NCBI GenBank assembly: GCA_965230755.1
Contig: CBDDLT010000005.1
Coordinates: 221,467 to 285,466 of the forward strand
DNA: 64,000 bases
Reading direction: 5' to 3'
From: Saprospiraceae bacterium
GTDB taxonomy: Bacteria > Bacteroidota > Bacteroidia > Chitinophagales > Saprospiraceae
Both the position numbers and the translations under genes were made by a program. The notes beneath the pieces were generated by a model that saw only the letters and a list, made by a program, of their open reading frames with translations, made no database searches and had not been told where the DNA came from. Shown in pieces: positions 1,691 through 53,195 of the stretch. Position 1 is the first letter of the stretch. Every line of letters starts with the position of its first letter.

Positions 1691-1705
1691 GCGGTCCGGA
1701 CGGGA
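1691..1705. repeat. attR-type direct repeat: 15-bp copy of the 3' end of tRNA-Asp (GCGGTCCGGACGGGA), imperfectly extended to 1710
   Basis: Identical 15-mer at 7204-7218, inside the tRNA-Asp 3' end. The next 5 nt match at 3 of 5 positions, giving 18/20 overall. Confidence 0.75.
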
Positions 1706-1844
1706 ATCAATCAATGCAATCACCTTACTTTCTACATAGACAACAATTTCTCATAAATTATCTATAAATGCCTATATAACATCTATTTAACCCAATCAAG
1801 GTGCATTGCAAAAGTGTGCATAGGGTTTCAAATAATGGTTGTTT

Positions 1845-1865
1845 CGTTGGGAAATGGTTGGGAAA
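1845..1865. repeat. 21-bp direct repeat CGTTGGGAAATGGTTGGGAAA (copy 1); candidate integrase arm-type or recombination-enhancer site
   Basis: An identical 21-mer occurs at 7128-7148. Both copies are in the same orientation, each lying 50-140 bp inside one end of the element. The motif is internally tandem (TTGGGAAA tgg TTGGGAAA). Confidence 0.6.
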
Positions 1866-1899
1866 TTGATTATATTTGGAATGTTCAAAAGTATTCTAA

Positions 1900-3267
1900 A
1901 TGGCAACTACTTCTATCCGAGCAAAAGGAAAAGAAAAGAAAACATTCTATCTACGACTGTCAATAGAACGAGGCAGGGTGTATGAAAGAAGCACTCAAAT
2001 AACGATTCCTTCCGAATTTTACAGCACTAAGACTGGATTACCTAAAACTGGGGATGTCAATAGGCAAGTGATTATTGATAAACTCAATAGACTAGAAACT
2101 TTCATAGTCGAATTATACAATAAGGCCGATGACAAGGGTCTGATTGACTCGAAATGGCTAGGGAACAAAATAGCAGAATTTAACGGTAACAAGATAAAAG
2201 GCGAGGATACTTTAAAAGACAAGGTAACTGACTGGATAGATCATATAATTGAGAATGCCGAATACAGAGAGAATGACAAAGGTGGTTATGGGCTAAGTGA
2301 GGACAGGGTAAGGCAGTATCGGAATATCAAAACTCTTGTAAGTGACTTTGAAAAATCAATTGAAGAGATATTGCTAGTATCAAAAGTTGACTCATTGGTC
2401 ATCAAGGCCTTTGAAAAATTTATGAAGGAAAGAAAATATCAGGATCAAACCATTAAGAAAAAGGTAACTGATCTTAAGTCCATATGCAGAGAGGCCAGAA
2501 AAAATGGAGTCGAACTATCAATAGGGTTTGATCAAATCAAAGTGGGATCAGCAAAGACTTATGACGACGATATGGACGTAATTTATCTTAGTATTCCAGA
2601 AATTAATAAAATAAGATCTATTGACTTAGACGACGAACCTCTTATTAATGCCAGAAAATGGTTGTTAGCATTATGTTTTACAGGACAAAGAGGGATTGAC
2701 TTAGTTGGGGGTCGCAAAAATGACAAATTTTACTCATGTCAATTAATTAAAGATAATTTTAAGGTCAGACCTAATGGTAAATTGGCATTATCTATCCGAC
2801 AATCAAAAGGAAACAAACAAGTATTAATACCGATTCTTGGACCAGTCAAAGAAATGTATGAGAAAGGTTTGCCTTATCCTATGACATTACAGAAACTAAG
2901 AGGACACTTCAAGGACTTGGGCAAACTGTCCGGAATAGACACTCCCACAATGGGAGTGAAACAAGAGGTTATCCTAATAGGAAAAGAAAGAACCAGAAGG
3001 GGTATTAAAAAAATTAGACCTAAATATGAATACATGGCCACCCACATTGGTCGTAGATCATTTTGCACCAACTTTTATGGTATTCTATCTACAAAAGATA
3101 TAAAACGAATAACCGGACATTCTAAGGATGTTACCCTTCTAAAATACATAAATGAGAGTACCGATGATCACATCGATAATGCAGAAGAAGCCTACAACAA
3201 AATAATTGGAATGGGTAAGCAATTGGAATCAACCGAATTTTCTAATCATTTAAAAATAGCAAAATAG
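1900..3267 (+). CDS. int: Site-specific tyrosine recombinase/integrase (Bacteroidota phage-integrase family)
   Basis: 455 aa. The C-terminal catalytic region HIGRRSFCTNFY...ITGHSKDVTLLKYI fits the H-x-x-R ... H-x-x-x-x-Y box II with a terminal catalytic Tyr. A Lys-rich N-terminal arm region is present. It sits next to a tRNA-derived att repeat. Confidence 0.85.
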   Translation: MATTSIRAKGKEKKTFYLRLSIERGRVYERSTQITIPSEFYSTKTGLPKTGDVNRQVIIDKLNRLETFIVELYNKADDKGLIDSKWLGNKIAEFNGNKIKGEDTLKDKVTDWIDHIIENAEYRENDKGGYGLSEDRVRQYRNIKTLVSDFEKSIEEILLVSKVDSLVIKAFEKFMKERKYQDQTIKKKVTDLKSICREARKNGVELSIGFDQIKVGSAKTYDDDMDVIYLSIPEINKIRSIDLDDEPLINARKWLLALCFTGQRGIDLVGGRKNDKFYSCQLIKDNFKVRPNGKLALSIRQSKGNKQVLIPILGPVKEMYEKGLPYPMTLQKLRGHFKDLGKLSGIDTPTMGVKQEVILIGKERTRRGIKKIRPKYEYMATHIGRRSFCTNFYGILSTKDIKRITGHSKDVTLLKYINESTDDHIDNAEEAYNKIIGMGKQLESTEFSNHLKIAK

Positions 3268-3273
3268 AAAATT

Positions 3274-3630
3274 ATGCAAGAGATTTACTTTACAAGCCAA
3301 GGCACTTTCGCCCCAATTAGTCAGAAACTATTCATTGACAACGAAACCAAGGCAAATGAACCCTTTTTAATTACTTTGGAACAGGCTGCCCTAATGTTAA
3401 ACTTTGAATCAATTGAAGCCTTTGAAAAGGAACTTTACGAACGATTCATTCTCATGGGAAATAAAGACAATCGAAACAAACCTTTTCGTATCCATTTAGA
3501 TAATGGATTGTTCGCCCTCCAGGTATCCGAGTTTGTCTACCAAGGCAAGTTCAGGCTAAATTACAAGACGTTCATGACGAGTAAGGGCCTAGAATGGATC
3601 AGTGGAGAACTTGAAGTACAATCAAAATAA
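3274..3630 (+). CDS. Hypothetical protein (118 aa), island cargo
   Basis: ORF begins 7 nt after int and is co-directional. No recognisable motif. Confidence 0.45.
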   Translation: MQEIYFTSQGTFAPISQKLFIDNETKANEPFLITLEQAALMLNFESIEAFEKELYERFILMGNKDNRNKPFRIHLDNGLFALQVSEFVYQGKFRLNYKTFMTSKGLEWISGELEVQSK

Positions 3631-3665
3631 AAAGGCAAGACAAGGAATTTACGTCGCCAGCCTAG

Positions 3666-4574
3666 ATGAATGACCTCGATTTCTTTAAGATGGAAGAATT
3701 TAGTTTTAATAAGGCCTTAGAAGAATTTTTGACCAATGGGCAGAATCCAATAAATGAAGGTAATTACGCCAAGGCCTATATTAAAATGAGGTTAAAATTC
3801 TTGGAGTTTGGAAAGTATCAAAGATTTATATGGGATAGCAAAGATGATAACATTACTAAAATGTTATCGAGTATTGTTCAACGCATAAATGACATCAAAG
3901 AAGAAGTCCAAGAAAAGTGGGTTAAAGAACAATTAATCCGCATAGAACAACTTAACGCAATTCATGAACTACTTGCCTTTGAACAAGAATATAGTGATGT
4001 GTTTTTTTCAATTGGCACGAAGTACTCTAACAATAAGACCTATCATTTCTTTCCCGATGTAAGCCACTACACGAGATGGGAACCAGGGTATGAATCTATT
4101 AAAATTGTTCGAATCGGGAATAAAATAATTAGCAGAGACGGAAGAATATCAAGGGCCATCAAATCAAGAAACAAGCAATTGGAAAACGTTGCTCCTATTA
4201 ATTATAAAAAAACCATTGATCAACCTGAAGATCAGTATACACTAGAACATATAATCAGTCATAAAAATGTTACTGGTGTAATAGAAGAAATAAAGAAACT
4301 ATGCCAAGGTAAAAAGGGCAAGGATATAGCAATACTCTTTATTGCCTTGGACGAATTAGGTGTCATCCCCAAAAATATAACGTCAAAGAAGTTTCACGAT
4401 TCTTGTAAAAATTCATTTGATTGGGATATTGGTGTTCTTAGATCAATGACCAAATTCAAGAAAAGTTATAGATATAGTGAAGTTTATGATGAAACCGAGA
4501 TAACACCTGATGGGAAGGAGAAAGACAGAATAGTATCTGCCATATCTGCCATGTCTGCCACTAAAGAAAACTAG
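3666..4574 (+). CDS. Hypothetical protein (302 aa), island cargo
   Basis: Long ORF with ordinary coding composition and no recognisable motif. Confidence 0.5.
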   Translation: MNDLDFFKMEEFSFNKALEEFLTNGQNPINEGNYAKAYIKMRLKFLEFGKYQRFIWDSKDDNITKMLSSIVQRINDIKEEVQEKWVKEQLIRIEQLNAIHELLAFEQEYSDVFFSIGTKYSNNKTYHFFPDVSHYTRWEPGYESIKIVRIGNKIISRDGRISRAIKSRNKQLENVAPINYKKTIDQPEDQYTLEHIISHKNVTGVIEEIKKLCQGKKGKDIAILFIALDELGVIPKNITSKKFHDSCKNSFDWDIGVLRSMTKFKKSYRYSEVYDETEITPDGKEKDRIVSAISAMSATKEN

Positions 4575-4674
4575 TTCAAAGTTCCAATTTATTCCTCGGA
4601 ACTTCTTGGAACCTTTGTTTTGTGGAATTGAGTAGCATCCTCTCTAATTTTACTTTCAAATAAAAATTAAAGAA

Positions 4675-4956
4675 ATGGAAAGTTTACAATTTATTGGTAC
4701 ATCACCAGATGTGATTGTCCGGAAAATTCTAACTGGCGTAGATGAACGTCTAAATGACTTAAAGGATCAATTTCAGCCGAAAGAACCAGAGGAATACTTG
4801 ACTAGGAAGCAAGTATCTGAATTACTGCAAGTAGACCTATCAACTTTGCACAGATGGACTAAATGTGGCAAGTTAATTGCCTATGGCATAGGCAACAGGG
4901 TCTACTACAAGAGGACCGAAGTTGAACAGGCATTATTAACTCAAAATTCGCACTAA
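4675..4956 (+). CDS. Helix-turn-helix DNA-binding protein, excisionase/AlpA-like
   Basis: 93 aa. The motif LTRKQVSELLQVDLSTLHRWTKCGKLIAYGIGNRVYYKRTEVEQAL is typical of the MerR-superfamily HTH_17/AlpA excisionase-type domain found on Bacteroidota mobile elements. Confidence 0.6.
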   Translation: MESLQFIGTSPDVIVRKILTGVDERLNDLKDQFQPKEPEEYLTRKQVSELLQVDLSTLHRWTKCGKLIAYGIGNRVYYKRTEVEQALLTQNSH

Positions 4957-4958
4957 TT

Positions 4959-5306
4959 ATGACAAAAAAAATCCAATATACTTATACGTTGTCAAAAGAG
5001 ACAAAGACAACAAGACACTATTTAATTGACCATTCCGATAACGAGAATCAGGTATTCAGTGATAGGATTAGGATATCCCATAACAGGAAATTCAATAATT
5101 CACCACATGATTATTTTGTTCACGAACGAAACAATCCTAATAGATGGAATAAAACAACCACTACTGGATTAATGAGAACAAATAAACCTAATCAATATGA
5201 GGGTGATATAATAGATTCTCAAAAAAGGAAGCAACATAAGGTGCTGTTCGAATTTATTGGAGATACACTTTTAGTTGACGTTCACTTAAATTATTTCAGA
5301 CTATAA
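4959..5306 (+). CDS. Hypothetical protein (115 aa)
   Basis: Begins 3 nt after the HTH gene and is followed by a strong terminator. No recognisable motif. Confidence 0.4.
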   Translation: MTKKIQYTYTLSKETKTTRHYLIDHSDNENQVFSDRIRISHNRKFNNSPHDYFVHERNNPNRWNKTTTTGLMRTNKPNQYEGDIIDSQKRKQHKVLFEFIGDTLLVDVHLNYFRL

Positions 5307-5310
5307 AATA

Positions 5311-5345
5311 AAAAAGGGTGTACTGATTGGTACGCCCCTTTTTGT
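5311..5345 (+). terminator. Rho-independent terminator
   Basis: GGGUGUAC..GUACGCCC gives an 8-bp stem (one G-U pair), followed by TTTTTG. Confidence 0.5.
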
Positions 5346-5406
5346 TCAATTGTATTCTAAACCTAATTAGAATTACTCAAATATACGCCTTTTAATTAAG
5401 TATCAA

Positions 5407-6714
5407 TTGATAGATTATAAAGTAAACAAAACAGTAGACCAAGAGACCATAAATAAGGTATTAGATTTTTTTAATGATCAATGTATAACTCCTGAATATT
5501 ACGAAGTTCCCTCAACCGCCGATAAGCACCATAAAACTTCGCATGTATATACCTATTTGGACCAAGAGACTGTACTAACAAGATACAGTCATAAAGACTC
5601 GGGAGAATTGTTGCATGAATGCCTCTACTTTAATATAAAACCCCACTATCTCTTTAATAGCAATGCGCATAACGCCAACTATTTTAGTCCAAAAGATTGC
5701 ATAAAAACACTTAAAGACTTTTTTGGCCCATTTGATATTGACTATGAATTACTAGAACCCATTAAAATTGAATACGGCCTAAACTTCTACCAGCCTTATG
5801 AACCGGAGAAGGTCATATCTTTATCACCCTACCAAGGCAAAAACCGTCCTAGGTTTGATCTAGGAGATAACAAAACCGGATATCAGTATCACAAAAAGAC
5901 ACCTGGCAGAATCAAGCATTACAATACTTTTAAGTATTACTGTAAGGGGTTGCACAATGACTACCACCTTTACGAGTATTGTCATCGAAATACTTTGAGA
6001 GCAGAAATAAAATGCTATCAGAAGGAAAGAATCAAGAAGGACGGCATCAATTCACTTGCAGACCTTTTGAATGTAGAGAGTTATATTCCCTTAGTAATGA
6101 ATTTAAGGAATGAGTTTCGCCGATTACTCATTCTAGATAGGATAACCCCAATAGAAGAATTCAATCTCTCTAAAACAGCAAAAAATAGATTCGAAAAGTA
6201 TTTGCATTCAGAAACCTGGGATGACTTTTGTAATGATAGTTACCGGAATAAGTATGCCAATAATTATAAATCATATTTACGACTCTTGGATCGGTTCGAT
6301 GGGAATGTAAAAAACAATCTTACAGGCCACTTTGAAAACCAACTCCAAAAACTAGAAAAGTGTGCAAAATGGACATACGTTAATAGTCCAATATGCACAC
6401 CTACGGAATCAACCAACCAAGGCATTCAAGACTCGGATAATGGTATCTGTTCGGAGAGCATCAAACTGCTCCATTGGGATCACCCTATTCGCAAAAAAAC
6501 AAGAAATGATAAAGATAATCCTAGAAACAATCTAGCCAGTGGAATTAAGGCAAGACAAGAAAGATGTCAAGCAAGTGGTCAGCAATCACTATTTCCATTG
6601 GGTGAGCAAATCAGTAAAACCAAACTAAAACTACTAATGCCTTGGATTGGAACGAAGTATGATCTATTTCCTAGCCTTGGTATTGATAATCCCGATGAGT
6701 TTTTAAGTGAATGA
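5407..6714 (+). CDS. Hypothetical Cys/His-rich protein (435 aa); candidate replication initiator, by position immediately upstream of the iterons
   Basis: Long ORF with Cys/His clusters (CKGLHNDYHLYEYCHRNTLRAEIKCY; CAKWTYVNSPICTPTES...GICSESIKLLHWDH). It ends exactly where the iteron array begins. The function is inferred from position, not sequence. Confidence 0.5.
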   Translation: MIDYKVNKTVDQETINKVLDFFNDQCITPEYYEVPSTADKHHKTSHVYTYLDQETVLTRYSHKDSGELLHECLYFNIKPHYLFNSNAHNANYFSPKDCIKTLKDFFGPFDIDYELLEPIKIEYGLNFYQPYEPEKVISLSPYQGKNRPRFDLGDNKTGYQYHKKTPGRIKHYNTFKYYCKGLHNDYHLYEYCHRNTLRAEIKCYQKERIKKDGINSLADLLNVESYIPLVMNLRNEFRRLLILDRITPIEEFNLSKTAKNRFEKYLHSETWDDFCNDSYRNKYANNYKSYLRLLDRFDGNVKNNLTGHFENQLQKLEKCAKWTYVNSPICTPTESTNQGIQDSDNGICSESIKLLHWDHPIRKKTRNDKDNPRNNLASGIKARQERCQASGQQSLFPLGEQISKTKLKLLMPWIGTKYDLFPSLGIDNPDEFLSE

Positions 6715-6732
6715 AGAATACTTGCACCTCTC

Positions 6733-7079
6733 ATGCGTGCGAAGGTTTTTTACTAGTCCTAAACACGCACGAAGGTTTTTCTTAGGTCTATACGCACGTG
6801 CAAGGTTTTTTAGAAATCATAACGCATGCGGAGGAGATCAAGAGTATTTCGGCACAATAAAAAGTATGGGGCAGTCACTATACACACGCACGAAGATTAT
6901 TCTACGGTCACAATTACAACTCCTAAGAATTCTCTTACTCGTAAAAAGGAATGGGGGGGTCATATACGCACATGAAGATTTTTCTTACATATAAAAGGAG
7001 TGGGCAGCACTATTCCTACGTTGAGTTTATTGAAATCACTCATGCGCATGTAGGAGCAAAGATTTTTTCACGGTCACAT
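6733..7079. repeat. Iteron array of about 7 direct repeats (ACGCAYGnnAAGGTTTTTT and degenerate variants, with a TCTACGGTCACA/TTCACGGTCACA sub-repeat); candidate origin or integrase arm-site cluster
   Basis: Repeat copies start near 6733, 6764, 6792, 6822, 6886, 6966 and 7043. The first four are ~30 bp apart. The track ORFs 6707-6994 and 6951-7154 are simply translations of these repeats (RRFF...ARRFF). Confidence 0.7.
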
Positions 7080-7127
7080 TCATACACTGAGGAGTATTAT
7101 TGTATGAAATATCCCAATATGGCACAT

Positions 7128-7148
7128 CGTTGGGAAATGGTTGGGAAA
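7128..7148. repeat. 21-bp direct repeat CGTTGGGAAATGGTTGGGAAA (copy 2)
   Basis: Exact match to 1845-1865. Confidence 0.6.
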
Positions 7149-7204
7149 ATATAAAATAAAAAATCGCAAGCAATTGACATCCAACTACTTGCGATAATTA
7201 ATTG

Positions 7205-7278
7205 CGGTCCGGACGGGACTCGAACCCGCGACCCCCTGCGTGACAGGCAGGTATTCTAACCAACTGAACTACCGAACC
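7205..7278 (-). tRNA. tRNA-Asp (anticodon GTC)
   Basis: The reverse complement reads GGTTCGGTAGTTCAGTTGGTTAGAATACCTGCCTGTCACGCAGGGGGTCGCGGGTTCGAGTCCCGTCCGGACCG. It has a 7-bp acceptor stem, a GTC anticodon in the CCTGCCTGTCACGCAGG loop/stem and a GGTTCGAGTCC T-arm. CCA is not encoded. Confidence 0.9.
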
Positions 7279-8465: not shown

Positions 8466-10376
8466 ATGGCCAAGAACGTAAAGAACAGTTCGAAAAAAAG
8501 CAAAAAAAAAGTTAGACCTAAAAAATGGATATGGAAAAAACATATCCCAGCACTTAGTATTTTATTTCTACTCGGTTTTGCCCTTTACTTTCAGAGTATC
8601 TACTTCGAGTATGTCTTGGATGACAAAATCGTTCTTACAGAGAATGACTACGTAAAGGAGAAGTGGGCTGGAATTCCAAAGATTTTGAGTTCGGATAGCT
8701 TTGAAGGGTATTTCAAAGAACAAAAAGATCTGCTTCAAGGAGCACGTTATCGCCCTTTTTCAATAGCAGCTTTTGCCGTAGAATATGGTATAGTTGGAGA
8801 AGCAAATCCTATGGTCAGTCATCTGATCAATATCGTTCTTTACGGTTTCTTGGCTTGTCTGATTTACTTCTTAATGTTTAGATTGAACATTTCATGGCCC
8901 CATAAATCATGGTATTTTTCATTGCCTTTTATAGTCGCATTATTATATGTATTGCATCCTCTTCACATTGAAGCGGTTGCCAACGTCAAGGGTCGCGATG
9001 AATTACTGACTTTTATTTTCAGTATCATCAGTTTTCTGTGTATTTACCGATACTCCTATCAAAGGCAATTGAGCTTTTTAATATTGGGCTCCGTTTCGTT
9101 TTTTGCAGCTTTAATGTTCAAGGAAAATGCGCTTCCATTTCTCGCCGTTATTCCCGCTTCCTTATGGGTATTCCGCAAGAAGGACCTCAATTTTCTAGTG
9201 TTGCCGTTTGTAGCTTTGCTCATTCCTACTATTATTTATTTTATCATTCGACTACAAGTGATCGGTTACTTGATCGATCCTCCCGGAAAAAAAATTACGG
9301 ATTTATTGAATAATCCTTTTGCGGAGATGAATTCCGGTGAAAGACTAGCGACAATCTTTTACACCTTGCTCGAGTATTTAAAACTTCAGGTGTTTCCACA
9401 CCCGCTAACCCACGACTATTATCCTTACCATATCCCAAAAATGACTTGGTCTAACGCGGTAGTTTATCTCTCGTTCTTGATCAATGCGATTCTATTCGCT
9501 TTGAGTTTATGGGGTATCTTCAAAAGGAAAGCATGGGGCTTTTTTCTCTTTTTCTATTTTGCCAGTGTTTCAATTGTCAGTAATATTTTGATTTCCGTAG
9601 GGGTATTCATGAATGAACGATTTGTATTTATCGCATCGCTTGGATTTTGCTTTTTAATACCTTGGGTGGTTCAGAAGGGAGCTGAGCGATTTTCATTCGA
9701 TAGCAAAATTATTCTAGGGAGTTTTGTTGCCGGATTATCCATACTCTTTGTTCTAAAGGATTTGGATAGAATCCCTGATTGGAAAAACCCTTTTACCTTG
9801 AATGAATCCGCTATTAAGGTTTCGAAAAATAGTGCTCGAGCCAATTGCTTCTACGGCGTTGAATTATACAAAAAGGCTCAGAATGAGACCGATAATTCTG
9901 TAAAACAAGATTTACTTAAGGAAGCAGCAGGATATGTTGATCGCGCTATTGAGATATATCCAGAATATGGTAGTGCCTTGAAAATGAAAGCTGGAATTTT
10001 GGGTGCGCAATACACTGGAATACAAGATCGGGAAAAAACCTTGGATCAGTTTTTTGAAATCATGCAGGACAAGCATATTCCTTATGTTCATCAATTCATC
10101 ATGGACTACTTATCGAAGAACCCTGATAATATAGACGCTATACTACAATTCTATCATCGACTGGGATTTGAGACCTATTATAGTAAACTGAATAATTCAA
10201 AATTAGCACTGGTCTCGTTGGAAAACGCTTTGCGCTTAGACCCAGAATCTCCTTTCATTCTAAGAGACTTAGCGATAATATACCATAGAGTAGGTAACTC
10301 GAAATCCAAGGCTATGGCTACTAAAGCATTGGCCTATTACCCGAATGATCAAGCTTTAATAAAAATATTGCAGTGA
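8466..10376 (+). CDS. Polytopic membrane protein with C-terminal TPR repeats (TMTC/DUF1736-like glycosyltransferase-type architecture)
   Basis: 636 aa. Lys-rich N-terminus, then ~10 hydrophobic helices, then a soluble C-terminal half with TPR-like repeats (AIEIYPEYGSALKMKAG..., ALRLDPESPFILRDLAIIYHRVGN). Confidence 0.65.
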   Translation: MAKNVKNSSKKSKKKVRPKKWIWKKHIPALSILFLLGFALYFQSIYFEYVLDDKIVLTENDYVKEKWAGIPKILSSDSFEGYFKEQKDLLQGARYRPFSIAAFAVEYGIVGEANPMVSHLINIVLYGFLACLIYFLMFRLNISWPHKSWYFSLPFIVALLYVLHPLHIEAVANVKGRDELLTFIFSIISFLCIYRYSYQRQLSFLILGSVSFFAALMFKENALPFLAVIPASLWVFRKKDLNFLVLPFVALLIPTIIYFIIRLQVIGYLIDPPGKKITDLLNNPFAEMNSGERLATIFYTLLEYLKLQVFPHPLTHDYYPYHIPKMTWSNAVVYLSFLINAILFALSLWGIFKRKAWGFFLFFYFASVSIVSNILISVGVFMNERFVFIASLGFCFLIPWVVQKGAERFSFDSKIILGSFVAGLSILFVLKDLDRIPDWKNPFTLNESAIKVSKNSARANCFYGVELYKKAQNETDNSVKQDLLKEAAGYVDRAIEIYPEYGSALKMKAGILGAQYTGIQDREKTLDQFFEIMQDKHIPYVHQFIMDYLSKNPDNIDAILQFYHRLGFETYYSKLNNSKLALVSLENALRLDPESPFILRDLAIIYHRVGNSKSKAMATKALAYYPNDQALIKILQ

Positions 10377-14431: not shown

Positions 14432-17400
14432 ATGAAAAAAAGTGCAATTATTTTAATGAGACCTACTTTTAGTGTACTTCTTCTTCTTTGGGCCGGATTA
14501 GGAATCCACCTGGAAGCCATTGGCCCTGCGAAAGACCTAATCTATACCGCTATAGAAGATTACCATAGTTTGGATACACTCCCACCTATGTGGGAAGCTA
14601 GAGACGAATATGATCTGGATCAGAATCCTTTTGACCTTAACGATCCCGCAATTGTAAAGGAAGAAGTCGAATTTGATACAGAGAATAACAATTACATCCT
14701 ATCTAAAAAGATAGGCGAAGAATTTTACACAGCTCCAAGTCATATGAGTTTTCAAGAATATCTTGATTATAAACAAAAGATGGCTGACAAGGAGTTCATG
14801 CAAAAAATGAACGGGTTAAATTCAGATGGAGGATTTCTGGATTTTGCTGCCGGAAAAGCAGATGGTATTAATCCTGTAGATAATCTAAATATTCAAGAGG
14901 ATCTAGTTGGAGGAATGTTTGGCGGAGCTCAAATCAGTATCAAACCTCAAGGATATGTTGACTTTACTTTTGGGGGGAGAGGAAATTTTTATGATAACCC
15001 AGCTAACCCACCAGAATTTAACAGACAAGGATTTTTACCCTATTTTCAACCCAATATCAATCTTAGAGTCGAAGGAGGTATTGGAGATAAATTTAATCTA
15101 GGTTGGGATTATAATACTCAGTCTACTTTTGACTTCGATAACAGAATCAAATTAGCCTACGATAGTGAAGAGTGGAGTGAAGATGAAATTGTTAAAAAAA
15201 TTGAGGCGGGCGACGTCTCGCTTCCACTCAACAGTCAGTTGATCAATGGAAGTCAACGACTGTTCGGAGTGAAAACCGAACTCCAATTTGGAAAACTCAC
15301 CCTAACAGGCCTAATATCCCAACAGAAATCCCAGAAAAAAGAAATTGTCATTGAAAACGGAGGTAGAATAAGAGAGTTCTTTAAGTATATCAATGAGTAC
15401 GACGAGAATAGACATTTCTTCTTAACTCATTACAACCGCGAAACCTACGAAAGATCCTTGGCAAACCTCCCACAAATCAACACACTGTTTAAAATTCGAA
15501 AAATAGAACTTTGGACTACTAACAAAAACCAGCAGGAAACTGATGTTCTAAGTGAAATTATTGCCGTTACAGACCTTGGTGAACCGGAAAGAATAAGCAT
15601 GTCGGACCGTCAATATTTTCCAACGACACCACGACATCCGGATATCTATGATGGTAAACCTCTTCCGGGATTTGAGTTGGCTTCACAAATAGGTGCTAAC
15701 GATTTATTCTCTACGCTTAGAAATGATCCGGCAATGAGAAGCACCGGAACGGCAAAAACACGTCTTGAGAACTTCTATAACATGGTTAATGGTCAGGATT
15801 TCGAAAGACTTCGTGCTAGAAAATTACAAAGAGATAGAGATTATTTTGTCCATGAAGATCTTGGTTTTGTCTCTTTAAACAGGCAAGTAGAGACGGATGA
15901 AGTACTTGGTGTTGCATTGGAGTATGAGTTCAACGGTAAAGTATATCAAATAGGTGAGTTCAATGATGACGCAGATAGTGTATTAATTGTTAAACTACTT
16001 AAATCCCAAACCAATGATGTAAGTAATGTATCCTGGGATTTGATGATGAAAAACATCTATTCCGTTGGAGCATATCAGGTAGACCGTGAGGATTTCCAAT
16101 TGGATATATTTTACGATGATCCGGGAAAAGGTGAAAAGAGATTCTTGCCAGCGCCCGAATTAGATGGAAGACCATTATTACAAATATTTAATCTAGATAA
16201 TTTAAATCCCGTCGGTGATCCGCAGCCCGATGGCCGATTTGATTTTGTGCCTGATCTGACAATTTTACCACGAACTGGAAAGATCATCTTCCCAGTCCTA
16301 GAACCTTTCGGTTCTTCTCTAAGAAATTACCTGGCCAGTCAGGGCGTTCCAGAGGAAGAAGATATATATAGTTTTCCAGAGTTGTACAGTAACACGATCA
16401 TCAATACCCTTCAAAGTCCAGAAACCAATCGGTTCGTTATTCGAGGGAAATACAAATCTGATGTTACAGCGGACATCTCATTGGGAGCTTTCAATATCCC
16501 CAGAGGATCTGTGGTTGTAACAGCTGGTGGTCGAAGGTTACAAGAAGGACTGGATTATGAAATAGACTATAATATTGGTCGTATTAAAATATTGAATGAG
16601 AGTTATCTCGCATCCGGACCTGTTAAGATTAGCTTTGAAGATAATGGCGCTCTAGGGTTCCAAGTGAAGACCATGATGGGCTTAAGAGCTGATTATCGAG
16701 TGAATAAGCATATCAATGTTGGTGGTACCTTTATGCATCTCTATGAAAGACCCTTTACCCCAAAAGTTAATATCGGAGATGATCCTATTAACAACAGGGT
16801 TTACGGACTCGATTTTAGTTATGAGAAAAGTGCTCCTTGGTTAACAAGGTTAGTAGACAAAATTCCCGGAATTGATACTAAGGAAGAATCAAAAATTAAG
16901 TTTTATGCTGAAACCGCATTTCTAAAACCAGGACACGCCCGAGCAATACGTCAAGGAGATGAAGAAGACGGCACCGTATATTTAGACGATTTTGAAGGTA
17001 GCTCTAATGGAGTTCCTGTCGAATCTTTCCATGGGAATTGGACATTAGCCAGTATTCCAAGTGCTTCAAGATTCGACAACGTAGAATTTCTACCTGAACA
17101 TCAGTTGAATAATGACCTAAATATTAATGTAAACCGAGCTCTCATGAGTTGGTATAGAATTTTGGATACCGAGGTAGGTGACAATATCAATAATTCACAC
17201 TATTCACGTGTAATTCAGGCAGGTGAGATCTTTCCTCAGCGGCAATTGAATATTCAGCAGAGTATTACTCGATTTCTGACTTTTGATGTTTCCTATTTCC
17301 CAAACGAAAGAGGACCTTACAATTTTGATCGTCCAGGAGGAACAGCTTATAGTGCTGGTATCAATGCTGATGGTGAACTCCTAGACCCCCGCAAAAGATG

Positions 17401-52931: not shown

Positions 52932-53195
52932 AATTTGAAAATTTAAAAGGTTAAAAAACACAAGTAACAACTGTGGCTTTAAATCCTATTTTCGATCGTG
53001 GTTATAGTTTGGATTGACAATAGGAAGAAATTAGTTTGCAAACATTTCGCGCTTTCAAAAAGATGAAAGCTTAAAACCTGTTACTAACTATATATTCCAA
53101 GATGCCTAGGATCTGTGACGGAATAATAGCAATTTTCTTCAACGAATGATTATCGATAAGTCAATAGAGCGCTAAAGCGTGTTCAATAGTTCAGT

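Follow-up and report, generated by a model that had tools for sequence, protein, structure and literature searches.

Enzymes of the Rep_trans type have hitherto been tied mainly to Firmicutes plasmids, integrative and conjugative elements (ICEs), integrative mobilizable elements (IMEs) and filamentous phages. The closest known systems to the one described here are the streptococcal IMEs in which a tyrosine integrase accompanies a Rep_trans gene, together with the ICEs that carry MOBT relaxases and replicate by rolling circle; in ICEBs1 and Tn916, Rep_trans-type proteins are used for rolling-circle maintenance after excision (PMC5704250). A GC-rich hairpin carries in its loop the nick site of Rep_trans and MOBT enzymes, which also bind an inverted repeat close by (PMC9371924; also PMC4797284). 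In a literature search of limited coverage, we found no description of Rep_trans elements in Bacteroidota. Here we analyzed a 64,000-nucleotide stretch of contig CBDDLT010000005.1 from a Saprospiraceae bacterium (the window), in which the open reading frame (ORF) of 435 codons at 5407-6714 on the plus strand, designated ORF435, belongs to the core genes of an integrative element of 5.5 kb (~1691-7221) that lies in the 3' end of a tRNA-Asp gene by way of a tyrosine integrase. From conserved residues and a structural model, we consider it probable that ORF435 represents a divergent branch of the Rep_trans superfamily (pT181 RepC/RepD, MOBT), that it acts as a metal-dependent tyrosine nickase-ligase, either a rolling-circle initiator or a relaxase, and that the element of which it is a core gene replicates by rolling circle. 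The initial annotation of this DNA had proposed a replication initiator of an unfamiliar family; the initiator-type fold and active-site motifs agree with the first part of that proposal, while the protein is not a new kind of replication initiator and appears to be a very divergent branch of a known superfamily.

ORF435 (435 aa) begins with a TTG codon. This start is credible because the proteins of its relatives open in the same way, with M-I/L-D-F/Y-L-K standing right behind the start codon in ORF435, in its closest homolog (P0002) and in dozens of further relatives, and the reading frame originally marked at this place is real. The protein had been called an orphan, and a word-indexed search with ORF435 indeed returned the query itself and one 46%-identical protein (P0002); exhaustive HMMER searches with a two-sequence profile retrieved 456 cluster representatives at E<=1e-3 (144 at E<=1e-10), and a genome scan placed the family at 42 loci, so that the term no longer applies. 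The conserved core of the family spans residues ~70-330. Nearly all of the loci belong to Flavobacteriia, including Flavobacterium, Polaribacter, Arenibacter, Chryseobacterium and Paenimyroides, and a few to Bacteroidales or Cytophagia. When metagenomes were scanned for close relatives, a single locus was recovered (34% identity), which does not carry the repeat array described below. ORF435 gave no match in Pfam, NCBIfam or PHROG and contains no Walker or primase motif, as had been remarked from the sequence at the outset. Searching PDB sequences with ORF435 was likewise without result. A match to mob_BfmA_Nterm (E 0.029) was at chance level and was set aside.

The structure of ORF435 was modelled with AlphaFold2 from an 80-sequence family alignment, over which all of the conservation counts given here were also taken, and the model was compared with the PDB using Foldseek. 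The mean predicted local distance difference test score (pLDDT) was 77, with residues ~70-320 mostly above 90. The protein divides into a catalytic core (~1-205), a helical domain (~206-321) and a disordered, poorly conserved C-terminus. The Foldseek search, which the initial annotation had recommended as a check for Rep folds, returned two matches below 1e-3 and no other, both to the staphylococcal rolling-circle initiator RepDE (4cwe, 4.6e-5; 4cwc, 9.1e-5; probability 1.00). In the model, the catalytic domain has the crescent shape and the two 5-strand beta modules that define Rep_trans proteins, and the helical domain sits where the DNA-binding domain of RepD does. There is no N-terminal helix-turn-helix (HTH) domain; the catalytic fold begins at residue 1-3, and the family's N-terminus, MIDFLK, is predicted to form strand 1 and to bear a metal-ligand Asp.

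The residues conserved in the family are D3, H80, N84, H88, N89, N91, E122, G124, N126, K176, Y178, K180, R198 and E200. In Rep_trans proteins the nucleophile is Tyr191, within R189-x-Y191-x-K193-xx-E196 on strand 10 (the E is replaced by Q184 in RepSTK1), R212-x-E214 lies on strand 11, R140-x-D142-x-A144-x-D146 on strand 6 and D46 on strand 1, and the metal ligands are D46, D142 and E214 (Carr et al., PMC4797284). The invariant residues of the ORF435 family agree with this active site in their order, their spacing and the strands predicted for them: D3 (78/80 sequences) falls on predicted strand 2-9, E122-x-G124-x-N126 (E122 80/80) on predicted strand 117-128, K176-x-Y178-x-K180-xx-(Q/H)183 (K176 79/80, Y178 80/80, K180 80/80) on predicted strand 168-179 and R198-x-E200 (R198 80/80, E200 79/80) on predicted strand 196-203. 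Position 183 of the alignment is Q in 72/80 sequences and H in ORF435 itself, so that the family shows the basic-x-Y-x-K pattern with E/Q at +5 on a beta-strand and, by sequence order and predicted strands, three carboxylate ligands on separate strands together with an Arg. The distances E122-Y178-E200 are 56 and then 22 residues, compared with 49 and then 23 for D142-Y191-E214 of RepC. The family also has an invariant motif of its own, PHYxFNxNxHNAN (H80, H88, N89), in which FN-x-N parallels EFNPNK of RepC. The Pfam profile for Rep_trans (PF02486) gave sub-threshold matches in 4/80 relatives (best 9e-5); its match to P0114 (E 0.006; 16.7 bits against a cut-off of 29.6) covers residues 159-264, corresponding to ~172-291 of ORF435 with the Tyr strand included. 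A forced hidden Markov model alignment to RepC, which was non-significant, placed the Y onto Y191 and R-x-E onto R212/E214. Because ORF435 falls below the Pfam threshold, we place it in the superfamily as a divergent branch, outside PF02486. Neither the His-hydrophobic-His on a beta-sheet with a Tyr on a helix that marks HUH endonucleases nor the four conserved Cys/His ligands of a zinc finger were found in ORF435, and searches of Pfam, NCBIfam and PHROG revealed no winged-helix iteron-binding domain and no Walker helicase or primase domain, with Rep_trans as the only result of the fold search.

Among described proteins, those closest to ORF435 are the Rep_trans plasmid initiators (pT181 RepC, pC221 RepD, RepDE 4CWC/4CWE and RepSTK1 4CIJ of Geobacillus pSTK1; PF02486). 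ORF435 shares 8-13% identity with them, below the Pfam threshold; its family lacks their conserved strand-9 T-x-Y-x-G and R140 and has the PHYxFNxNxHNAN motif of its own, and it is chromosomal, in integrative elements of Bacteroidota, whereas they belong to small Firmicutes plasmids. The canonical loop of their origin hairpin is CT'AA, and the candidate loop of the ORF435 family is TTGTTCAAG. Like RepSTK1, and unlike most MOBT relaxases, ORF435 starts its catalytic fold at residue 1-3. For the filamentous phages, gpII binds a set of short repeats beside its nick site, and RS1 is an integrated satellite with little beyond rstA and a few other small genes. The initiators of these phages (f1 gpII, Phage_CRI; CTXphi/RS1 RstA) have related nicking chemistry and motifs (PMC4797284), whereas the window element has no morphogenesis or coat genes, no relatives turned up in IMG/VR, and no Phage_CRI match was seen.

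The most widely shared cis-feature of the family lies directly upstream of the gene for the Rep-like protein (rep). In the window, a GC-rich hairpin between an A-run and a T-run occupies 5311-5343 on the plus strand, a candidate terminator and/or origin hairpin. It is followed at 5343-5373 (plus strand) by a candidate nick or operator region, in which the motif TGTTCAATTGTATTCTAAA (5343-5361) overlaps a second, 7-bp hairpin, ATTCTAA-accTAA-TTAGAAT (5354-5373). The region 5300-5410 folds far better than shuffled sequences (z -4.2). An equivalent GC hairpin is present directly upstream of rep in most of the related loci, and the order across the family is an A-run, a 5-7-bp GC stem, a loop, a T-run and then TTTGTTCAAA[AT]GTT at 12-16 nt; farther downstream in the same leader come GGCAAYG and, ~15 nt before the rep start codon, CAAAKATA. 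Behind the hairpin, the TGTTCAA motif was found in 20/27 distinct relatives matched by the anchor pattern, and in L001, L002 and L004 an inverted repeat of different sequence stands at the same place. At 16 loci the loop is constant, (T)TGTTCAA(G) = TTGTTCAAG, on ~12 different complementary stem sequences that covary; a constant loop on covarying stems suggests sequence-specific recognition of an extruded hairpin. Since Rep_trans and MOBT enzymes nick in the loops of GC hairpins and the feature most widely shared in cis lies upstream of rep, the conserved hairpin with TGTTCAA (5311-5373), and not the downstream array, is most likely the region where the putative nick would be made. The pattern GTTCAA[AT][AT]GT has three copies in the window, upstream of int, upstream of rep and at 53181, of which the last looks like chance, and 10 or more relatives show the pairing of int leader and rep leader. 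The motif could serve as a common operator, perhaps for HTH_17, or as a nick site.

Two smaller features were seen in the same leader. In L008-L029, 40-60 nt upstream of the Rep-like genes, the hairpin is followed by a second TTGTTCAAA. The CAAAKATA box (5380-5395 in the window; ~15-25 nt before the rep start in window and relatives) matches the Bacteroidota -7 consensus TAnnTTTG when read as its reverse complement, a hint of a promoter that points leftward to the hairpin, perhaps for an antisense or counter-transcript.

The fold, the conserved residues of the active site, the boundaries of the element, its synteny and the conserved cis-elements rest on the data presented here. We infer every step of the following mechanism, including the nicking, the nick site and the service to replication rather than transfer, and likewise any assignment of a protein to the downstream repeats. 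The integrase (Int) and an excisionase-like HTH_17 protein would excise the element as a circle, and ORF435 would bind the origin via its helical domain (~206-321). Tyr178 would then nick one strand, most likely at the upstream hairpin/TGTTCAA region, with a metal held by Asp3, Glu122 and Glu200 and the phosphate positioned by Lys176, Lys180 and Arg198. ORF435 would stay covalently on the 5' end while the replicative polymerase, helped by a host helicase of the PcrA/UvrD type, copies the circle in one direction, and Rep would finally rejoin the displaced strand. The excised element would in this way be maintained or amplified, and single-stranded DNA for transfer could be supplied.

Several observations weigh against this assignment. 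ORF435 itself has no match to PF02486 at E<=1, the family profile did not reach RepDE when run against PDB sequences, and hhalign returned nothing either with RepC alone or with a 20-sequence RepC alignment, whose diversity is very low (members >80% identical); no sequence method ties ORF435 itself significantly to Rep_trans. The strand-9 T-x-Y-x-G is not kept (position 157 is S in 52/80, 159 K in 27/80 and 161 Y in 21/80), nor is an equivalent of R140, position 120 being N in 70/80. The family was not found on plasmids (tblastn against PLSDB with ORF435 and P0009 as queries) or on IMG/VR contigs (scan), so no autonomous replicon is known to depend on it. As to the proposed origin, the hairpin loop in the window is TGAT, without the TTGTTCAA kept in relatives, and the hairpin at 5311-5343 also resembles an ordinary intrinsic terminator of the preceding gene, orf115. 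Moreover, in 13 relatives as well as in the window, GTTCAAAAGT also occurs in the int leader, where it separates the -7 box (TAnnTTTG) from the start codon of int, and an operator, perhaps for the HTH_17 protein, is at least as good a reading of it as a nick site.

It is also conceivable, although we consider it unlikely, that ORF435 is primarily a MOBT-type conjugative relaxase, in which case the element would be an IME whose single strand is passed to a helper conjugative element, with the hairpin or the array as origin of transfer. MOBT relaxases (RelSt3 of ICESt3, NicK of ICEBs1, Orf20 of Tn916) have the same Rep_trans fold and nick chemistry, the line between initiator and relaxase is blurred (PMC5704250, PMC9371924), and on their elements too the Rep_trans domain, a tyrosine integrase and an excisionase occur together, with the nick site in a GC-hairpin loop near the gene and rolling-circle maintenance of the excised element possible. 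The element in the window is small and chromosomal, with int and an excisionase-like gene; its relatives carry defence cargo, as IMEs do, and no plasmid relatives were found. On the other hand, ORF435 belongs to another phylum and lacks the N-terminal HTH that is the oriT-binding domain of most MOBT relaxases; moreover, none of the six genes of the element, to which the search was confined within this genome, matched a TcpA/FtsK-type coupling protein or a type IV secretion component. To our knowledge, coupling proteins of the TcpA type do not characterise the conjugative elements of Bacteroidota. Where Rep-like relaxases are known to act in mobilisation, TcpA-type coupling proteins from ICEs of Firmicutes take part (PMC5704250). 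Far less credible still, to the point of being almost dismissible, is the reading of ORF435 as a zinc-finger nucleic-acid-binding protein or an unrelated enzyme. The zinc-finger-like Cys/His clusters pointed out in the initial annotation do exist as local Cys/His-rich stretches, but these residues are not conserved (C179 6/80, H183 5/80, C192 30/80, H193 7/80, with H187 inside an insertion), the C-terminal C...C...C...HWDH is gap-rich, predicted disordered (pLDDT 31-52) and missing from P0002, and Rep_trans was the only fold to rise above noise. In the same C-terminal part, many relatives (P0003, P0006-P0012, P0151) have a conserved extension, C-x-VTG-x-x-IS-x-Q-x-x-S-x-x-LS-x-x-GLK ... IRN-x-x-x-N (alignment columns ~420-510), of which ORF435 retains fragments only (SESIKLLHWD, IRKKTRN) and P0002 nothing.

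The repeat array that had been noticed right behind ORF435 proved to be real. It consists of seven direct repeats ('iterons') on the same strand (6731-7080, plus strand) and begins 17 bp behind the stop codon of rep; its distance from the tRNA core is ~100-470 bp. Each unit has an alternating CGCAYG-type core, often a short palindrome (GCACGTGC, CGCATGCG, CATGCGCATG), behind which come AAGRTTTTT and, in several units, CTACGGTCAC. AAGRTT starts at 6742, 6772, 6802, 6893, 6975 and 7059, giving spacings of 30, 30, 91, 82 and 84 bp, and a degenerate copy near 6820-6850 splits the 91-bp gap; the copies crowd most closely at the end away from the tRNA core, where three of them are spaced by 30 bp. 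Six of the seven forward matches to AAGRTTWTT in the window, and 5/5 of those to GCRYG-N0-8-AAGRTT, fall within a 412-bp stretch, and none of 2000 shuffles of the array region reached six copies. Homologous arrays were found in L007 (Paenimyroides, Rep 35% identical; six copies at 9037-9421, with 29- and 30-bp tandem spacings included), in L003 (Chryseobacterium, 26%; four tandem 33-bp copies at 15769-15907) and in L022 (Flavobacterium, 32%; three or four weaker copies at 8603-8840, adjacent to rep), and the joint consensus is cgCRCG-AAGRTTTTT-CTACGGTCAY-TAYRCG. The array lies 1.37 kb after rep in L007, separated from it by another gene, 3.9 kb from the tRNA and between divergently oriented cargo genes, and 6.8 kb after rep in L003, where it adjoins the 3' end of the host dnaE gene. 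At ~20/27 distinct loci nothing comparable was present within 400 bp after rep, and L018 and L028 have a different, AAGGTTA-type repeat. The proteins common to all array-bearing elements are Int, HTH_17 and Rep.

Judged by its conservation as non-coding DNA between elements whose proteins are 26-52% identical, the array must be a protein-binding site. Its variable position argues both against integrase or Xis arm sites and against a strict unit of rep plus adjacent origin. A functional link between array and Rep may exist, and our tentative suggestion, which we rank as possible and not as probable, is that the array is an accessory binding locus for the helical domain of Rep, serving as an origin enhancer or in copy control. 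The broader proposal is more doubtful than this, namely that an undescribed, Pfam-invisible Rep_trans clade defines a widespread family of 5-9 kb Flavobacteriia tRNA/tmRNA elements, some with restriction-modification or toxin-antitoxin cargo, that replicate by rolling circle once excised, and that in one sub-lineage, the window included, Rep acquired an iteron-type locus with conserved repeats of 30-35 bp (cgCRCG-AAGRTTTTT-CTACGGTCAY). We know of no precedent for a Rep_trans initiator that uses an iterated origin or copy-control site. The array was also considered as a single-strand origin, which is not favoured, its single-stranded DNA structure being not unusual (z -1.3 and -1.9). Scoring of exact k-mer repeats across loci was too crude, the top match (L016) being a coding leucine-rich-repeat array.

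Readings of the array that do not involve an accessory Rep site were weighed against the same evidence. About as doubtful as the broader proposal is that the array is a regulatory or hitch-hiking cis module for another factor, such as HTH_17, a partition or silencing protein, or a helper's relaxase or replication protein. In L007 it fills the intergenic space between two divergent cargo genes, no protein is better conserved than HTH_17 among the elements with an array (45-52% identity), and unit palindromes such as GCACGTGC, CGCATGCG and CATGCGCATG are of the kind bound by dimeric regulators; yet HTH_17 is equally conserved (52%) in L018, which has the AAGGTTA-type repeat instead, it is present in L002 and L004 where no array follows rep, and the element has no partition ATPase gene. 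A place in the recombination machinery, with the array as extra arm-type, Xis or bending-protein sites of a long arm of the attachment site (attP) and unrelated to ORF435, appears improbable. The repeats in the window do lie near both the putative arm-type 11-mers (30-400 bp) and the tRNA core (104-473 bp), and the cargo-less L018, L028, L009 and L022 also have direct repeats of their own in the same arm, but in L007 the homologous array stands between two cargo genes at 3.9 kb from the tRNA core, the three 30-bp-spaced copies in the window are the farthest from the core, and the iteron sequence is unrelated to the 11-mers of both arms. More improbable again is the model of the initial annotation, an iteron-binding initiator with its origin in the array directly 3' of the gene, whether theta-type or of the kind found in Staphylococcus aureus pathogenicity islands (SaPIs). 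SaPIs, the related phage-inducible chromosomal islands (PICIs) and iteron plasmids share with the window an initiator gene with direct repeats right behind it and, for the islands, an integrase. In SaPI/PICI rep-ori modules and iteron plasmids the initiator is a helicase/primase or a winged-helix protein and melts AT-rich DNA lying between the iterons. The array does adjoin the stop codon, with same-strand copies and 30-bp tandem spacing, and its conservation in L007, L003 and L022 despite Rep identities of 26-35% shows that the sites are under selection in elements each of which carries this Rep. ORF435, however, has a nickase fold of the Rep_trans type, not that of a winged-helix iteron binder, primase or helicase, no AT-rich unwinding element or DnaA box beside the array was noticed on reading the sequence, and the adjacency of gene and array is not conserved. 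The 'Rep then iterons' layout thus loses its force as an argument: with ~20/27 loci lacking the array it is not a family property, and Rep_trans proteins act at a hairpin loop and an inverted repeat and make no use of iterons in the manner of theta-plasmid or SaPI initiators.

The element that carries ORF435 is bounded by two copies of a tRNA-Asp 3' end. The left copy (1691-1708, the attL core) is identical in 17/18 bases to 7204-7221, the 3' 18 nt of the intact tRNA-Asp (GTC) gene (7204-7278, minus strand), which form the right core copy; this tRNA was the sole match of an Rfam scan. Two tandem 11-nt units, cGTTGGGAAAtGGTTGGGAAA, stand in the left arm at 1844-1865 (plus strand) and are repeated exactly in the right arm at 7127-7148 (plus strand), 55 bp from the tRNA 3' end. 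A Bacteroidota-type -7 box, TATATTTG (1871-1878), and the leader motif GTTCAAAAGT (1883-1892), both on the plus strand, come just before the int ATG. Six genes, all on the plus strand, lie between the att repeats. They encode a tyrosine integrase of 455 aa (1900-3267; Pfam Phage_int_SAM_5 2e-8, PHROG integrase 1e-14; 29% identical to the L009 integrase, E 1e-45), a 118-aa protein with a weak KilAC/ANT (antirepressor C-terminal) domain (3274-3630; E 7.5e-6), a DUF6043 protein of 302 aa (3666-4574; E 4.9e-11), a 93-aa HTH_17/excisionase-type DNA-binding protein assigned by domain match (4675-4956), the small protein orf115 (4959-5306) and ORF435. HTH_17 is the most conserved protein of the element family, with 45-52% identity in L003, L007, L018 and L022, and its gene is upstream of rep in every annotated relative examined. 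A counterpart of orf115 accompanies rep in some relatives: the ORF that precedes P0002 is 44% identical to it, and weaker matches occur in L004 and L018. Next to the tRNA, a terminator-like hairpin with a T-run (7163-7195, minus strand) is supplied by the element just downstream of tRNA-Asp, and the hairpin of the original host flank (1642-1690) lies beside the tRNA remnant.

ORF435 had been described as the longest cargo ORF; it is instead part of the core of this element family, since every annotated relative that was examined shows int ... HTH_17 - small ORF - rep in this order, in some cases with cargo behind it. At each of the 14 loci tested, the 3' end of a gene for tRNA-Leu, tRNA-Arg or transfer-messenger RNA (tmRNA) recurs as a copy of 15-34 nt that lies 190-245 bp upstream of the int leader motif, and element lengths measured from these repeats are 5.1-9.0 kb. 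Because the tRNA 3'-end repeats lie outside it at these 14/14 loci, the exact 22-bp direct repeat that the two tandem 11-mers form was dropped as att core. Relatives have 11-mers of their own, such as GGTTGGGCAA, GGTTTGGCAA, GCTGACTAAA and GTTTGGAAG, which stand two or three in tandem before the int promoter and again near the right end, ~55 bp from the tRNA (examples: L009 3997/10554, L018 4476/9785, L023 4454/12932); the ~55-bp spacing is also seen in L008, L009, L010, L018, L023, L028 and L029. With att repeats, int at one end, arm repeats on both sides and the 11-mer pattern in at least eight loci, the elements have the make-up of tRNA-targeting tyrosine-integrase islands, and the tandem 11-mers are likely to be integrase arm-type sites on both attP arms. 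Among the cargo of relatives are a restriction-modification enzyme of the MmeI type, a toxin-antitoxin pair (Gp49/HTH) and a beta-helix protein, and the family acts as a small carrier of defence genes. MmeI-type (type IIG) genes were located at 9814-12567 in L002 and 10988-13957 in L004, and the Gp49/HTH pair at 5294-5928 in L002, with cargo placed between rep and tRNA. The family resembles the streptococcal IMEs as a small site-specific element with a tyrosine integrase, a Rep_trans gene and small cargo (toxin-antitoxin, restriction-modification), but those insert at the 3' ends of ribosomal-protein genes and have a recognisable PF02486 domain, whereas the ORF435 family targets tRNA/tmRNA 3' ends in Flavobacteriia and is unseen by Pfam. 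What sets the family apart is its occurrence in Bacteroidota, its divergence beyond Pfam, the HNAN motif, tRNA/tmRNA targeting, a different hairpin loop and, in one sub-lineage, the iteron module.

These results provide a predicted fold and a testable active site (Y178, D3/E122/E200) for a family of at least 456 sequence clusters that domain libraries leave unannotated, and they would place Rep_trans-type nicking enzymes in the core of a coherent family of small islands that integrate at tRNA genes in Flavobacteriia. Because the islands of the relatives carry defence and other cargo, how they replicate or move matters for the flow of genes among environmental and fish-pathogen Flavobacteria. 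Two conserved cis-sites, the hairpin/TGTTCAA element and the iteron module, offer concrete targets for experiments.

One further relative, L050, is GenBank MT835707.1, a 28-kb fecal contig recorded as 'UNVERIFIED: Bacteriophage sp.'. It carries a Rep-like gene adjoined by a Bro-N/KilAC gene, HTH_17, two arm-binding tyrosine integrases around a tRNA-Asn, and DUF4099/DUF3945 genes, which we take to be typical of Bacteroides conjugative transposons. The record was rejected as evidence for a phage, given its integrases, its conjugative-transposon-type genes and its unverified status, and L050 looks more like bacterial mobile-element DNA than like a phage. Outside the element, positions 1-1065 of the window (plus strand) hold an ORF that runs in from the window edge and contains ~ten 69-nt (23-aa) repeats of the type PAEYETITEEVM-K-PE. 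This is host sequence unrelated to the element, and the C-terminal sequence of the ORF presumably resembles a peptidoglycan-binding domain.

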